This document shows positions 39,097-46,382 of a stretch of DNA of 64,000 nucleotides, piece by piece. Position 1 is the stretch's first letter. Each line of letters begins with the position of its first letter. Position numbers and translations under genes: made by a program. This DNA is from Escherichia coli. GTDB taxonomy: Bacteria > Pseudomonadota > Gammaproteobacteria > Enterobacterales > Enterobacteriaceae. The notes under the pieces are model-generated. The model did no database searches, was not told the DNA's origin, and saw only the letters and a program-made list of their open reading frames with translations. Location: the NCBI RefSeq assembly GCF_003334405.1, contig NZ_QOWM01000018.1. The stretch is one strand, 5' to 3'.

Positions 39097-39430
39097 GCGA
39101 CACCGGGCGGTGCCGTGCCTCCATAAAAGCCGGGCGATAAGGCGGGGATGCACAGGGCGCAAGGGAAGCCGCAGCCTGACGCACACGGCTGGCGGGAGTT
39201 GGAGGGTGAGACCGCGAAATCTGAGCGGGTGAACGACCGGAAAATCACGGCAGACGGGAAGGAGGGACCGGGTGACCGCAGCGGCGAAGCGTACCCTTGC
39301 ATCCCTGCCAGCCCGGCTAAGATGGAGGCACGGCACAGCCCGCACACGATACGGCGGCCACAGAGCTGAAAACCCACAAGGCCATGCCCCGCATGGCCGG
39401 GTAAAAGCGGAGCCGCCGGCGACTTCCTTA
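39097..39430. repeat. ~335-bp leader repeat upstream of ardA (family 2), duplicated upstream of klcA
   Basis: Near-identical to 46050-46382. Confidence 0.6.
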
Positions 39431-39530
39431 TTCCGGCGAGTGCAGAGGACACGCCGCATGACCTCCAGACCACCCCTGATATGAAACGATCATGATCGGC
39501 GTGTCCCTGCGTAAAATATACATGCCTGGT

Positions 39531-40160
39531 TCACCGGAGAATATCTGTGATATCCACAAGTTTTCTGTCGCGCAGCCAGTCCTGCGCTTCACGCACCACA
39601 CAACTGTCCGGTTTCACCGCTTTCAGCGATGATGCCAGTCGCTTGATCAACATCACCAGTTCCCGTGTCTGTATGTCCGGCATTGTCTCCGGCGGAGCAG
39701 GGGGACTCTCATTTCCGACGCTCATCCCATGCGCTTCCAGTGTGGCACGGACAAACCAGGCGGCATCGACCAGTTGCTGGCGAATCCAGGCCAGATCGGT
39801 ATTTCTGTCACGGGCTGCCATTCGCTCGCCCGACAGCGCCTTGCTGATATGGCTGCGCACCAGATTATCCAGGAGTGCCTGCGCTTCTTCCGGTGAAAAG
39901 CCACCTGGTATCTCTGTGCGCAACAGCCCTTTCCTGTACAGAAGCTGCAGCAGATCAACCTGCGACCGCACAGCAACTATCAGTACATAACGGACAACAT
40001 TCGCACTGGCAGTGGTTTCTGTATCATTCAGCAGTTCTTCCGAATCGTTCCCCCCGGTGTTGCAGAGCAACGGCAACAGAGGTCGCATCCACGCGGGAAC
40101 CTGGTATTTTTCGTCTGATTTCATCATATTACGTTCTCCAGCTTGTTCGGGATCATCCAC
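39531..40160 (-). CDS. Leading-region hypothetical protein
   Basis: ORF downstream of psiA; no recognised domain. Confidence 0.35.
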   Translation of the reverse strand: MDDPEQAGERNMMKSDEKYQVPAWMRPLLPLLCNTGGNDSEELLNDTETTASANVVRYVLIVAVRSQVDLLQLLYRKGLLRTEIPGGFSPEEAQALLDNLVRSHISKALSGERMAARDRNTDLAWIRQQLVDAAWFVRATLEAHGMSVGNESPPAPPETMPDIQTRELVMLIKRLASSLKAVKPDSCVVREAQDWLRDRKLVDITDILR

Positions 40161-40843
40161 TGCTCAAGTGCACGTACCTGTACCGGTGCACCACGACCGG
40201 CCTCACCGGCTTCAAAAATCAGCCGCCAGAGTGGTTCCTCCTGCCAGAAAAACCGGTCAAATGATGACAGTGATGGAAAACGCCCGCACCACCCCCAGAA
40301 AATCGTTTCCAGATCATGCTCCTCAACAACACCAGACCAGCGGGACAACCAGCTTCCGACCGTGGCGGGAGTATGAAACGCAAGGTCAATCTGCGCCTGA
40401 GCAAAACATGTCTGGTATTCCAGTTCCCGTCGTTCTGCCTCACGTTCCCGCTGGCGGCTGTATTTCTGCTCTGTCAGCGTGGTTTTCTGACGACGACGCT
40501 CACCTTCACGAAAAGGCACGGACGGGAACAGACGGTGCCCCGCATCGGATGGCAGGGGAAGAACACAGACTTCACCAAAACTTTCAATCAGTTTATCCAC
40601 GGCAGCCAGCCACAGGAGACGGTTGCCATGAAATTCCTCCTTCGTCAGCGCAGGGGCAAAAAAGCGGAGATCGGTCAGCGAAATCCGGCGACTGCCATTC
40701 AGGCAGCGAAAGAAAGCGGTGGCATAAGGCCATGCTGAAAGTGTGCGTCCCTGACGACGACGTTGTTCTGTGACAGCCACCGCCTGCATGGCGGCCTGTT
40801 GTTCTGCGCTGAGGGGGATCAGTGCCCGTGAACGTGCGCTCAT
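40124..40843 (-). CDS. psiA: Plasmid SOS inhibition protein PsiA
   Basis: 239 aa, overlaps psiB stop; position and size. Confidence 0.75.
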
Positions 40844-41277
40844 GCCTGACCTCCTTCTGCCATCAGGATATGAATGATGTCGTTAACACTGTATCCCTGC
40901 GCATCCAGTGTCGCGGCAAGCGCCAGCGTGTGACTGATAGCGACAGGCGTGAAGATATGTTGCACCTGAACGACGGCGAAAGGCTGTCCACCACCATTCA
41001 CCAGAACCAGCATCCAGAGCTGAGAGACCTCTCCCGGCGAACATAATGCCAGGTGGAAACGTTCGTGGGCTGGCGTGAAACGAACCTGGACGGGGAAAAA
41101 GCCCCCGAACTCGCTGCCATACTCCCCGTTCATCATCCAGTTAGCCGGTGCGTCCACTTCACGCATCACCTCGTGAGTGAGATTACGGCGCATATCGCTT
41201 CCCGCAGCACGGATATCTTCATATTCCTGTGCGTTCATGGACTGCAGGGCATTCAGGGTCAGTTCAGTTTTCATCAC
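40840..41277 (-). CDS. psiB: Plasmid SOS inhibition protein PsiB
   Basis: 145 aa; position between ParB-like gene and psiA; sequence pattern recalled for PsiB. Confidence 0.8.
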
Positions 41278-41328
41278 GGTATCTCCCTTGCTGCCGCCCC
41301 GTCTCCGGCGGGGCGGTGTGGTTGTTCA

Positions 41329-44938: not shown

Positions 44939-45130
44939 TCACCTGTTTCTGCTGCCCTGAAGGATATAGTGACCACCGAGGAAAACCGCCTGCTGATTCA
45001 CCACAAAATCGCAGATTTCATCAACAATCTGCGCAGTGGTGAGCGGTTTCTGCCCCATTTCACGACGCCGCGCATTAATCACGGCTTTGTAATTGCGCAG
45101 AATTTCGCGGGTTTCTGTGCTGATATTCAT
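44939..45130 (-). CDS. Hypothetical protein (63 aa)
   Basis: ORF overlapping the stop of the upstream gene. Confidence 0.3.
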   Translation of the reverse strand: MNISTETREILRNYKAVINARRREMGQKPLTTAQIVDEICDFVVNQQAVFLGGHYILQGSRNR

Positions 45131-45549
45131 GACATGTGCTCCCCGTCCAGCGCCTGTAACACAACGTCCATCGCTTCGCGTTCTTCCCTGACGAATGCGT
45201 CACCGTCGCCCCCGTTCTCACTCCCGACGGCATACAGGCGCTTCATTTCACTGCCTGCCAGCGCCACCACTTTTTCCAGCATCACCGCCGGGACTGTCAC
45301 CTGACGGCTGACGCGCTTTTCTTCCATCAGTTCACGAACAACGTCGTGAACAACGCTGACATCCGCACCATGCTCAAAGGCATCGTCCAGCCGCTGCATG
45401 ACGGTTTCCAGCTCATCGTCTGACAGGTTCCAGTCCTGGGCTATGTGACGCACATCCCCACGGGTCAGCACCACGGCAAAAACGCATTCACTGTCCGGCA
45501 CGTCTGTATCCAGCACTTCGCGGATAATTTCTTTAACAGTACAGTACAT
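45127..45549 (-). CDS. Leading-region hypothetical protein, paralogue of 47266..47715
   Basis: Shared motifs LSDDELETVMQRLDD / [15 protein letters not shown] and RQVTVPAVMLEKVV / [14 protein letters not shown]. Confidence 0.4.
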   Translation of the reverse strand: MYCTVKEIIREVLDTDVPDSECVFAVVLTRGDVRHIAQDWNLSDDELETVMQRLDDAFEHGADVSVVHDVVRELMEEKRVSRQVTVPAVMLEKVVALAGSEMKRLYAVGSENGGDGDAFVREEREAMDVVLQALDGEHMS

Positions 45550-45595
45550 TTTCTCGTCTCCTTTACAGGGGCGGCATTGCCGCCCCGTCCGTTAA

Positions 45596-46021
45596 TCAGT
45601 CCAGAGCCGCGTAAATCGCGTTGCATTCAGGGTGAAATTCGATGTGACGCCACAACTGCGCATCGCGCATCCGGTAAAGCTGGGTCAGTCCTGCATCACC
45701 GCTGTCGTGGTACAGCCACAACTGGCGGTTAATCACAAGGGAAGTCAGAATGATGCCGCAGGCATCAGCACTCACGGTACGGTCAAACCAGTTTGCACCG
45801 TTCACTATGTGGAAACGGTCGCCATCTGGCATCATGTAGCCGCCACCGTCCGGCAGGCGGATGAAGTGCCAGAATCCGCCTTCATATTCCGGCATCATTT
45901 GTTTCGCCAGCGCGTATACAGACGCTTCGGCATACAGAAAATCCTGGCCAAACAGGTAAGGCAGAAAAGACAAACGGTCGCACTCTTCAACGTTCAGAGT
46001 GACAGGTTTCGCATATTGCAT
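45596..46021 (-). CDS. klcA: Antirestriction protein, KlcA/ArdB family
   Basis: 141 aa; [16 protein letters not shown] motif recalled for the ArdB/KlcA family; GGAGG SD; same 335-bp leader as ardA. Confidence 0.65.
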
Positions 46022-46049
46022 GATGTTTTCCTCCGTTGTTCACATATTC

Positions 46050-46382
46050 CGCGACACCGGGCGGTGCCGTGCCTCCATAAAAGCCGGGCGATAAGGCGGG
46101 GATGCACAGGGCGCAAGGGAAGCCGCAGCCTGACGCACACGGCTGGCGGGAGTTGGAGGGTGAGACCGCGAAATCTGAGCGGGTGAACGACCGGAAAATC
46201 ACGGCAGACGGGAAGGAGGGACCGGGTGACCGCAGCGGCGAAGCGTACCCTTGCATCCCTGCCAGCCCGGCTAAGATGGAGGCACGGCACAGCCCGCACA
46301 CGATACGGCGGCCACAGAGCTGAAAACCCACAAGGCCATGCCCCGCATGGCCGGGTAAAGCGGAGCCGGCGGCGACTTCCTT
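46050..46382. repeat. ~335-bp leader repeat upstream of klcA (family 2)
   Basis: Near-identical to 39097-39430. Confidence 0.6.

Follow-up and report, generated by a model that had tools for sequence, protein, structure and literature searches.

A duplicated transferred-strand hairpin before ardA and a klcA/ardB-family gene, very probably the class 2 single-stranded-DNA promoter of an IncI1 leading region

In the 64,000-nucleotide stretch of DNA analysed here (the window), two near-identical direct repeats precede two anti-restriction genes, and each of them is, with high confidence, a class 2 single-stranded-DNA promoter (ssp2 or Frpo3) of the IncI1 leading region. The repeat acts in the single-stranded transferred DNA and not as an RNA leader. 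This element is already known and no new principle is added; the present analysis contributes independent comparative support, namely compensatory changes, a conserved pre-melted bubble at −11 to −9 and, in many genera, an almost exclusive link to anti-restriction genes of three mechanistically distinct families. It also provides precise coordinates on this plasmid, in which the two copies may act as two roadblocks.

The duplicated unit and the transferred strand

The repeats, the genes that they precede and the origin of transfer were placed as follows, the + strand being the transferred one.

33510–33574, + strand: oriT core, a 17-bp inverted repeat followed by GCACATCCTG/T (sequence, pattern match, nikA/nikB synteny with R64)
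38568–39068, − strand: ardA, 166 aa, ATG at 39068 (Pfam PF07275; R64 annotation)
39086–39429, + strand: repeat copy A, the whole duplicated unit, upstream of ardA (alignment, repeat finder)
39092, 39096 and 39416: substitutions between copies A and B, the first two at the gene-proximal end
about 39403–39406: 1-nt indel between the copies in an A-run, AAAA versus AAA
45596–46021, − strand: KlcA/ArdB-family antirestriction gene, 141 aa, ATG at 46021 (Pfam PF03230; R64 annotation)
46040–46382, + strand: repeat copy B, upstream of the klcA/ardB-family gene (alignment, repeat finder)

Pairwise alignment, a repeat finder and a base-by-base comparison concurred in that the copies are direct repeats of 344 and 343 nt with ~98.8% identity. 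The initial annotation had read near-identical repeats at 39097–39430 and 46050–46382 by eye, and these coordinates proved essentially right; the similarity, which might have turned out much shorter or weaker once aligned, was not weaker. It includes an exact core of 309 nt (39097–39405 = 46051–46359) and ends abruptly on either side, and chance cannot account for an exact direct repeat of this length within 64 kb. The copies differ at 7 positions overall, with the core identical, in comparison with 13 in R64 and 16 in pESBL. Only 18–19 nt separate the repeat end from the start codon of either gene, and the ardA Shine-Dalgarno (SD) sequence, GGAGGA, lies at 39076–39081. That the repeats directly precede ardA and a KlcA/ArdB-family gene, as also proposed from the letters alone, was borne out by these coordinates and by Pfam, in which the ardA product matched ArdA (E=2.6e-29, model positions 1–151 of 155) and the KlcA/ArdB-family product matched Antirestrict (E=1.9e-25, model positions 2–92 of 92). 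NCBIfam held no model matching ArdA, KlcA, DUF1281 or the neighbouring genes, and Pfam was used for gene identities.

Identity to R64 was 98.8%, and the window carries an IncI1 R64-like leading region with the gene order annotated as in R64 (nikB-nikA ... ardA-psiA-psiB-parB-ssb ... antirestriction ... methylase). The synteny of the repeat neighbourhood is common to R64, pESBL and F, and more than 5000 plasmid records match the repeat at 90–99% identity. A pattern match found the motif ATCCTG/T on the + strand at 33567–33573, which we take to be the nick region on the basis of the MOBP relaxase nick consensus. The position of this motif on the + strand shows that this strand is the one transferred, and hence that ardA and klcA are both read from it as template; the putative nick defines the leading region as 33574 onward.

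The hairpin and its promoter elements

The elements recognized within each copy, and the transcript predicted from them, are listed below.

39104–39342, + strand: long imperfect hairpin of copy A; 5′ arm 39104–39160 (template side), 3′ arm 39289–39342 (non-template)
46058–46296, + strand: hairpin of copy B, identical in sequence to that of copy A
39125–39127 (copy B 46079–46081), + strand: AAA in the 5′ arm, facing −9, −10 and −11 of the −10 hexamer
39297–39302 (copy B 46251–46256), + strand: −35-like hexamer TTGCAT, 3′ non-template arm
39318–39323 (copy B 46272–46277), + strand: −10-like hexamer TAAGAT, 3′ arm, 15 nt after the −35
39069–39116, − strand: predicted ardA 5′ UTR, including the SD sequence GGAGGA; klcA equivalent at about 46022–46070
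39380–39398 (copy B 46334–46352), + strand: small 8-bp hairpin GGCCATGC-CCC-GCATGGCC, within the repeat and distal to the main hairpin
39409–39429 (copy B 46362–46382), + strand: distal boundary motif GGAGC-N-GCGACTTCCTT, repeat end

Folding of the repeat as single-stranded DNA, a check suggested in the initial annotation, produced an imperfect hairpin of ~240 nt on the + strand, with −97 kcal/mol over 371 nt for copy A (z=−5.05; none of 100 shuffled sequences was equally stable). Its arms were also recovered as an inverted repeat. Its longest helix comprises 15 bp (39110–39124 with 39322–39336), and its base is placed 36–37 nt from the start codon in both copies. The −35-like and −10-like hexamers match the consensus in 3/6 and 4/6 positions, respectively, and they stand 15 nt apart, a short spacing for sigma70. 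The AAA on the opposite arm generates A.G, A.A and A.A mismatches at −9, −10 and −11, which together constitute a conserved pre-melted bubble, and the template arm presents 4 extra bulged bases here, which renders the promoter geometry uncertain. The start site is predicted ~7 nt past the −10, at template position ~39116, from the positions of the boxes and the start codons, experimental start sites being those of pESBL only. The term "leader" used initially was a misnomer, as this prediction leaves just ~48 nt at the end of each repeat to be transcribed as 5′ UTR, the rest being promoter hairpin and upstream flank.

It could be argued that the repeat is nonetheless a transcribed RNA leader (an attenuator, a riboswitch-like element or an sRNA target), with ardA and klcA expressed from an ordinary duplex promoter further upstream, since the hairpin is foldable as RNA too, covariation is blind to the distinction between DNA and RNA, the − strand fold reached z=−4.3, and the − strand carries, upstream of the main one, a small hairpin that runs into TTGTGGGTTTTC. 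This explanation is considered very improbable. It requires a duplex promoter, whereas no sigma70 promoter was found on the − strand in or upstream of the repeat, and a consensus promoter scan returned no duplex promoter on either strand of either copy; the − strand of the repeat reads GTGCAT-N19-TTTTAT, a sequence-level observation on the duplex form only. The repeat had no Rfam match, the Rfam 15 scan of 33000–50000 returning no relevant match and a single chance-level NsiR1 (E=0.35) away from the repeat. Moreover, the conservation is asymmetric, with TA...T kept on one arm and mismatches kept at −11 to −9, a pattern that fits a hairpin promoter and not an RNA helix.

A terminator scan did not call the small hairpin at 39380–39398, its sole call being an unrelated site at 46413–46431, outside the repeat, and thus no terminator is claimed within the repeat. 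Some relatives carry a hairpin of another sequence at this position.

Conservation among relatives

The comparative set consisted of 58 aligned relatives in all, in two size classes, long forms of 221–231 nt and short forms of 159–172 nt; the 37 long forms came from Enterobacter, Yersinia, Klebsiella, Erwinia and other Enterobacterales. One Rheinheimera sequence was rejected as a chance pattern match without the hairpin, and one further sequence (L040) was left out of the alignments. Among the 37 long forms, 98% of the cells were paired, compared with 36–45% with slid partners, and compensatory changes were observed in 14 pairs versus at most 5 in the slid controls. In the −10 element, T-12, A-11 and T-7 were invariant in 58/58 relatives; relatives had been harvested with the blocks CGGGTGA, GCCCGGYTA, CACGGC and GCCGTG, whose invariance is partly by construction, so that only the remaining columns represent independent evidence. 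Thirty of the 37 long forms, and most short forms, retained the −35 CTTG; of the other seven long forms, four had it displaced and three had TTTTCT in its place. The 15-nt spacer was constant in the 30 long forms with CTTG. Positions −11, −10 and −9 were unpaired in 32, 31 and 31 of the 37 long forms, respectively, whereas −12 was paired in 33/37, and −8 and −7 were paired in 37/37, with covariation. Of the 67 family members counted in other genomes, 60 were immediately followed by a gene for ArdA, KlcA, a methylase or DUF1281.

These comparisons bear on the proposal that the repeat is a functionless duplication, a recombination scar, a small mobile element or the gene of a 73-aa protein. The near-perfect identity of the two copies and the presence of open reading frames on both strands could be so explained, but such an origin accounts neither for compensatory changes across many genera nor for the constant place relative to anti-restriction genes, and no terminal inverted repeats or target duplications were found around the repeat. 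The identical 73-aa ORFs, present in both copies and already suspected of being spurious, were rejected as coding: the + strand frame is not conserved, being open only in near-identical copies and broken in most relatives, by a 1-nt deletion that shifts the frame in pESBL, by an in-frame stop in F and by multiple stops in distant copies. The probability left to this proposal is almost negligible.

Known systems and the proposed action in the recipient

The repeat differs from the pESBL ardA and klcA copies at 16–21 of 349 alignment columns and from the F copy at 10, so that identity with pESBL-EA11 class 2 and F ssp2/Frpo3 is 94–97% over ~349 columns. The likeness to pESBL-EA11 class 2 extends to the position 5′ of ardA and klcA/ardB and to a hairpin with reconstituted −35 and −10. 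IncI plasmids carry two copies, as here, and F carries one; the spacer CCCTGCC found here pairs with the 5′ arm better than CAACGCC of pESBL, and nothing essential differs between these elements. For pESBL, Wen et al. (NAR 2025, PMC12672017) described class 2 single-stranded-DNA promoters before both ardA and klcA, using 5′ RACE and showing by RNA-seq that there is induction in transconjugants; the published start sites match in silico hairpin-promoter predictions, which also argues against an RNA leader. The initial suggestion that ardA and klcA are under the same cis element is what that paper showed for this near-identical IncI plasmid, and the initially suggested checks, folding as single-stranded DNA and 5′ RACE soon after mating, have since been carried out in published work. 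In F, the class 2 element was named Frpo3 (bioRxiv 10.1101/2025.04.03.647016). The promoter activity, start sites and induction are carried over to the present plasmid by inference from the near-identical pESBL copies, while the repeat, hairpin, boxes, bubble, orientation and homology are observed on this plasmid itself.

The class 1 elements, Frpo/ssiD of F and ssi1–3 of ColIb-P9 (Masai & Arai 1997; Bates et al. 1999), present the same principle, in which a long hairpin formed by the transferred strand reconstitutes a sigma70 promoter, active only in single-stranded DNA. The equivalents of ColIb-P9 ssi1–3 lie in the window at the following positions.

35033–35359: class 1 ssi equivalent
37891–38216: class 1 ssi equivalent
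44234–44566: class 1 ssi equivalent

Both classes share the leading region and the orientation, but class 1 elements measure ~330 nt versus ~240 nt for class 2, and they drive ssb/psiB-type operons whereas class 2 drives anti-restriction genes. Class 1 has been reported to be stronger and a source of primers, in PMC12672017 and in bioRxiv 10.64898/2026.01.09.698686, and class 2 as a roadblock. The possibility that class 2 is a diverged Frpo/ssi element was rejected, given that no sequence similarity was detectable: BLAST with word size 7 against Frpo (ssiD) and ColIb-P9 ssi1–3 gave a best E-value of 2.3, and the profile HMM of the repeat family had zero matches on the three ssi copies of the window, in agreement with the initial separation of this repeat from the ssi family. 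From the same architecture and orientation it follows that the repeat works like Frpo, though outside the Frpo sequence family.

A dependence of promoter recognition on a DNA hairpin is also found in the early-gene promoters of phage N4, where SSB assists in extruding the hairpin or in stabilising it as single-stranded DNA, and small hairpins of 5–7 bp are read by the virion RNA polymerase. To our knowledge, the N4 hairpins involve no −35/−10 mimicry and no link to conjugation.

During conjugation, the + strand would be led into the recipient with its 5′ end, at the nick (~33573), in front, so that the complement of ardA arrives ahead of the repeat. Once both arms are inside, ~240 nt would fold into the imperfect hairpin that mimics duplex DNA, and the host sigma70 RNA polymerase would read the 3′ arm as the non-template strand (TTGCAT, 15-nt spacer, TAAGAT), with −11 to −9 kept unpaired by the A.A, A.A and G.A mismatches. 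The transcript would begin inside the basal stem, at about template position 39116 in copy A and 46070 in copy B. From there the polymerase would follow the 5′ arm, leave the hairpin and enter ardA in the one case, and klcA with the genes behind it in the other, so that both anti-restriction functions would be produced ahead of the conversion to double-stranded DNA. Synthesis of the complementary strand would remove the hairpin and switch the promoter off. Like its homologue F ssp2, the hairpin probably also holds up this synthesis until UvrD opens it, which would lengthen the single-stranded window. Single-stranded-DNA promoters explain how a plasmid can express anti-restriction and anti-SOS genes during the seconds to minutes that precede its conversion to duplex form, an early step that decides the establishment of resistance plasmids in restricting hosts. 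In F, the element drives ardB and delays complementary-strand synthesis, and its deletion reduced transfer into non-isogenic E. coli at least 21-fold (bioRxiv 10.64898/2026.01.09.698686).

The roadblock activity, carried over by homology from the single F copy, raises the question of whether the repeat is mainly a replication-level signal, a roadblock or a priming signal for the complementary strand, with the promoter secondary. Fraikin et al. (2026, bioRxiv 10.64898/2026.01.09.698686) revealed that ssp2 of F, which shares 97% identity with copy B, halts the synthesis of the complementary strand where its stem ends, a roadblock resolved by UvrD, and that replacing ssp2 by ssp3, of equal promoter strength and without roadblock, did not restore transfer into EcoKI-carrying recipients, HS or B; class 1 Frpo transcripts are also known to prime DNA synthesis. 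However, in several recipients of F, the same study found deletion of ssp2 to cost far more than its replacement, and the two roles are compatible. The promoter function is shown by the conserved −35/−10 and bubble together with the 5′ RACE and induction in PMC12672017, and by the constant placement of the element, ~36 nt ahead of anti-restriction genes with strong ribosome-binding sites. The seven hairpins compared had similar energy, −0.28 to −0.33 kcal/mol/nt, and stability is thus uninformative on class 2 as a roadblock. A mainly replicative role is judged very unlikely, and the promoter reading, which no observation contradicts, is retained.

One further member of the same hairpin family was found in the window.

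49959–50123, + strand: short-form homologue (profile HMM E=1e-8 and 1e-4), 31 nt upstream of the DUF1281 gene (49002–49928, − strand) at the head of the methylase gene block

Homologues also occur among the candidate promoters Frpo'4, Frpo*1 and Frpo*3 of an insect-gut metagenome island (Samuel et al. 2024, PMC11541004, Supplementary Table 2). Frpo'4 is a long-form homologue of the class 2 repeat, and Frpo*1 and Frpo*3, published as low-certainty candidates without a link to class 2, are short-form homologues that share the blocks GCCGTG-N13-CGGGCG, AAGCCGCA, CGGGTGA, CTTG, GCCCGGCTA and CACGGC and are devoid of ~55 apical nt. It is tentatively proposed, as a possibility less likely to hold than to fail, that class 2 is a size variant of one old single-stranded-DNA promoter family serving almost exclusively anti-restriction genes (ArdA, ArdB/KlcA, single-stranded-DNA methylase and the DUF1281 block) across Enterobacterales plasmids, with a further short-form member before the DUF1281 gene in IncI1 and F that is apparently unreported, and that the distal motif could be a signal, for example of priming, stalling or termination, common to all single-stranded-DNA promoter classes. 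If this were true, IncI1 plasmids would carry two or three successive roadblocks and not one.

The published "class 3" may correspond either to the hairpin at 48677–48900, directly 5′ of the methylase gene, or to the short form at 49959–50123. The conserved distal motif, GGAGC-N-GCGAC(A/T)TCCTT, closes the unit; the class 1 ssi elements end in a variant of this motif, and a different variant comes after the hairpin of the methylase gene.

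The direct repeat and its plasmid setting

Alignment, a repeat finder (family D1) and base-by-base comparison altogether resolved two direct repeats, copy A and copy B, with an identical core of 309 nt (39097-39405 = 46051-46359). The copies are ~98.8% identical over 344 nt, differing by two substitutions at the gene-proximal edge, by a single-base indel within a run of A and by a third substitution, and their similarity is lost abruptly at both repeat edges. The G+C content of the repeat is 66%, against 52% for the whole window. Read on the - strand, each copy stops 18-19 nt ahead of a start codon, and GGAGG-type ribosome-binding sites are found before both start codons, just beyond the repeat edge.

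39086-39429, repeat copy A
46040-46382, repeat copy B
38568-39068, - strand, ardA (Pfam ArdA, E=2.6e-29)
45596-46021, - strand, ArdB/KlcA-family gene, 141 aa (Pfam Antirestrict, E=1.9e-25)
33567-33573, + strand, nick-region motif GCACATCCTG/T of the oriT core, which is visible in the window sequence and has a 17-bp inverted repeat just before this motif
35033-35359, 37891-38216 and 44234-44566, ColIb ssi1-3 (class 1)

The initial annotation had read 39097-39430 and 46050-46382 as near-identical leaders directly preceding ardA and the KlcA/ArdB-family gene. The exact core confirmed the first point, and the short distance to the start codons together with the Pfam matches confirmed the second.

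The repeat matched >5000 plasmid records at 90-99% identity, with R64 at the top (98.8%), whose annotation gives the IncI1 leading region as nikB-nikA-oriT ... ardA-psiA-psiB-parB-ssb ... antirestriction ... methylase-DUF1281. In a multi-plasmid comparison, the two copies differed at 7 positions here, against 13 in R64 and 16 in pESBL, which suggests that the identical core may result from recent gene conversion between the copies in this plasmid's lineage. Being direct and 6.95 kb apart, the copies are also a substrate for deleting ssb-psiB-psiA.

The transferred (T) strand was assigned with the established MOBP nick-site consensus; since the motif sits on the + strand, this is the T strand. 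It enters the recipient 5′ to 3′ from ~33574, serving as the template for every leading gene on the - strand.

A probable hairpin promoter in single-stranded DNA

Folding of the repeat as ssDNA, which had been proposed as a check, revealed that the + strand forms a long and imperfect hairpin (-97 kcal/mol over 371 nt, z=-5.05), and none of the shuffled sequences folded as stably.

39104-39160 with 39289-39342, + strand, stem of copy A, from fold and pairing
39297-39302, + strand (3′ arm, read 5′ to 3′), -35-like TTGCAT
39318-39323, + strand (3′ arm), -10-like TAAGAT, 15-nt spacer from the -35
39380-39398, + strand, small 8-bp hairpin, distal to the main hairpin within the repeat
39409-39429, + strand, distal end motif GGAGCCGCCGGCGACTTCCTT, closing copy A

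The basal helix of the stem is G+C-rich and comprises 15 bp. Because transcription towards ardA needs the 5′ arm as template, the 3′ arm is the non-template strand. In the -10 hexamer of copy A, T-12, A-8 and T-7 are paired, and A-11, A-10 and G-9 form a bubble opposite AAA (39127-39125). It is plausible that an unpaired, base-flipping -11A between G+C-rich clamps explains promoter activity despite the weak hexamers. The transcription start is predicted ~7 nt past the -10, at template position ~39116 (46070 in copy B), which would leave a 5′ UTR of ~48 nt.

The repeat could instead be an RNA leader transcribed from an upstream duplex promoter. However, a consensus scan found no duplex promoter directed at ardA or klcA, where the duplex - strand reads GTGCAT-N19-TTTTAT, and the repeat is without an Rfam match, so that this reading is poorly supported.

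The element has been described and experimentally tested between 2024 and 2026, and is thus already known. A homologue, Frpo'4, is among the candidate ssDNA promoters of Samuel et al. 2024 (PMC11541004). Wen et al. (NAR, Dec 2025, PMC12672017) revealed by RNA-seq that six operons of the IncI plasmid pESBL were induced in early transconjugants, each with a hairpin upstream, and mapped start sites by 5′ RACE. In their scheme, ssi1-3/Frpo form class 1, the two similar hairpins preceding ardA and klcA form class 2, and class 3 is the hairpin ahead of M.EcoGIX. The copy in plasmid F was found independently and named Frpo3 in a 2025-26 preprint (bioRxiv 10.1101/2025.04.03.647016). Fraikin et al. (bioRxiv 10.64898/2026.01.09.698686) observed in F that complementary-strand synthesis stalls at ssp2, as class 2 is also called, with the stalled 3′ end coinciding with the end of the stem, that UvrD relieved the stall, and that deletion of ssp2 lowered transfer into non-isogenic or restricting recipients.

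Aligned over 349 columns, the two copies of this window show 16-21 differences to those of pESBL and 10 to that of F; they are the same element. The proposal that ardA and klcA share a common cis control is supported by the class 2 hairpins that Wen et al. (PMC12672017) placed 5′ of both genes in pESBL. Neither BLAST nor profile HMM detected relatedness between class 1 and class 2 sequences, bearing out the view that this family is distinct from ssi.

Conservation and gene association of the hairpin family

To find homologues, a single genome of each species was scanned for CGGGTGA-N28-45-GCCCGGYTA-N9-CACGGC; this gave 51 loci, nearly all in plasmid-like contigs of Enterobacterales (Erwinia, Pantoea, Yersinia pestis, Klebsiella, Enterobacter, Buttiauxella and others). 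Their hairpins fell into long forms of 221-231 nt and short forms of 159-172 nt, plus one of 115 nt. Seven loci (L004, L005, L006, L009, L018, L024 and L046) carry E. coli-type leading-region sequence, with elements and genes 93-99% identical, in assemblies labeled Streptomyces morookaense, Oscillospiraceae, Oscillibacter, Collinsella and Lachnospiraceae; this most likely reflects contamination or the misbinning of plasmid contigs, not true hosts.

For the 37 long forms, RNAalifold predicted 42 pairs, 14 of them with compensatory changes. Pair counting found 98% of cells paired and 14 compensatory pairs in the proposed structure, against 36-45% and at most 5 in slid-partner controls, and no column shuffle equalled the observed covariation score. 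The invariance of the search-pattern blocks is partly by construction, and the compensatory changes fall outside those blocks. The -10 was always TAnnnT (e.g., TACAGT, TAAGAT, TACGAT and TATAGT, with TACCGT or TAAGGT in short forms). The -35 CTTG and the 15-nt spacer were kept in 30 of the 37 long forms, the remainder having the TTG displaced by 5 nt (4/37) or TTTTCT (3/37). Position -11 was unpaired in 32 and positions -10 and -9 in 31 each, whereas every one of the 37 had -8 and -7 paired, and -8 covaried from A-T to G-C.

Sixty of the 67 family members directly precede one of four gene types: a homologue of ArdA (17) or ArdB/KlcA (17), an M.EcoGIX-type (ssDNA-type) methylase (20) or a DUF1281 gene at the head of the methylase block (6); the other seven have short or unresolved flanks. 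A strong ribosome-binding site is found 29-44 nt beyond the hairpin in most of the 60. Long and short forms alike adjoin anti-restriction genes across Enterobacterales plasmid contigs, and in Yersinia, Enterobacter and Klebsiella contigs the long form precedes the methylase itself. The family appears to be dedicated to anti-restriction functions, extending the initial annotation to one cis element that controls three mechanistically different functions of this kind across genera.

Orientation, the asymmetry of the arms, conservation of the bubble, the association with particular genes and the experiments in the literature altogether fit an ssDNA promoter, and the repeat very probably is one, and probably also a replication roadblock. 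A purely replication-level element is poorly supported, given the promoter-specific conservation of the -10, the -35 and the -11 to -9 bubble. So is a functionless duplication or a coding ORF, against which the 73-aa ORF is broken in relatives. The repeat is real and functional, and its biology interesting; the original observation and its interpretation were both correct.

The 73-aa + strand ORFs (starts 39148 and 46102), already regarded as spurious, were rejected as coding, their frame not being conserved. A 1-nt deletion right after the ATG puts pESBL and most relatives into a shifted frame, which happens to be open in both pESBL copies but encodes an unrelated peptide; the F copy has an in-frame stop at codon 15 of the original frame, and more distant copies have several stops. 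The long - strand ORFs 38568..39473 (301 aa), 38989-39459 and 45994-46599 are artefacts of the G+C-rich, stop-free hairpin, and the + strand ORFs 39272-39484 and 46226-47053 are likewise spurious. The 301-aa ORF gives an apparent N-terminal extension of ArdA, which is really 166 aa long from the ATG at 39068 (R64 annotation).

Other hairpins and repeats of the leading region

The family has a third member at 49959-50123 (+), a short-form hairpin of 165 nt that begins the region 31 nt upstream of the DUF1281 gene (49002-49928, -). It has GCCGTG-N13-CGGGCG, AAGCCGCAG, CGGGTGA, CTTGCAT, GCCCGGTTA and CACGGC in common with class 2, carries TAACGT as its -10, and can be aligned in each block to class 2 as well as to Frpo*1 and Frpo*3 of Samuel et al. 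A profile HMM of class 2 matched it with E=1e-8 and E=1e-4, and its conservation in pESBL and F is 98-99%; short forms have covariation of their own (10/33 pairs).

A different large T-strand hairpin, 48677-48900 (+), lies immediately upstream of the M.EcoGIX-type methylase gene (47934-48617, -). Its fold has z=-7.2, with 30-nt arms of 83% complementarity. F and pESBL both conserve this hairpin, three scan loci (L015, L042 and L051) hold relatives at 78-82% identity, and its sequence has no relation to that of class 1 or class 2. Convincing -35/-10 boxes were sought in it and not found. The ORF that R64, pESBL and F annotate as 'hypothetical protein' encloses it completely and may therefore be spurious. 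Published class 3 is presumably one of these two hairpins, and probably 48677-48900 (ssp3), because Wen et al. (PMC12672017) call class 3 unlike all others; if so, 49959-50123 would be a candidate ssDNA promoter that has gone unreported.

The class 2 unit is marked at its distal end, 43-82 nt beyond the hairpin, by GGAGC-N(2-12)-GCGAC(A/T)TCCTT; of 60 distinct elements 34 carry this motif, where chance would give 0.19. No function for this motif was found in the ssDNA-promoter papers cited. Its complement is a Shine-Dalgarno-like AAGGA(A/T)G without a start codon, and all six hairpin-end sites in the window are on the T strand:

39409-39429 and 46362-46382, T strand, class 2
48938-48954, T strand, after the methylase hairpin
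35338-35359, 38193-38214 and 44543-44564, T strand, variant GGAGCGC..GGCGCGAC at the end of each class 1 ssi

The class 1 ssi repeats belong to a longer duplicated module, 37893-38525 versus 44237-44901 (and 35033-35362; repeat families D2, D3, D7 and D8, 85-95% identity), reaching ~300 nt beyond the 326-333-nt ssi defined in ColIb-P9. It contains a small hairpin (38486-38525 / 44862-44901) that comes right after ardA in one case and right after the klcA block's last gene in the other, so that the same module of hairpin and ssi follows both class 2 operons. In addition, there is a 110-nt direct repeat of 75% identity (35866-35975 versus 36078-36187). One copy overlaps the 3′ end of a gene (36066-37037, -) for a recombination-promoting nuclease of the Rpn family, and the other overlaps a small ORF (35845-36066, -) immediately downstream of that gene; the two ORFs encode similar C-terminal peptides.
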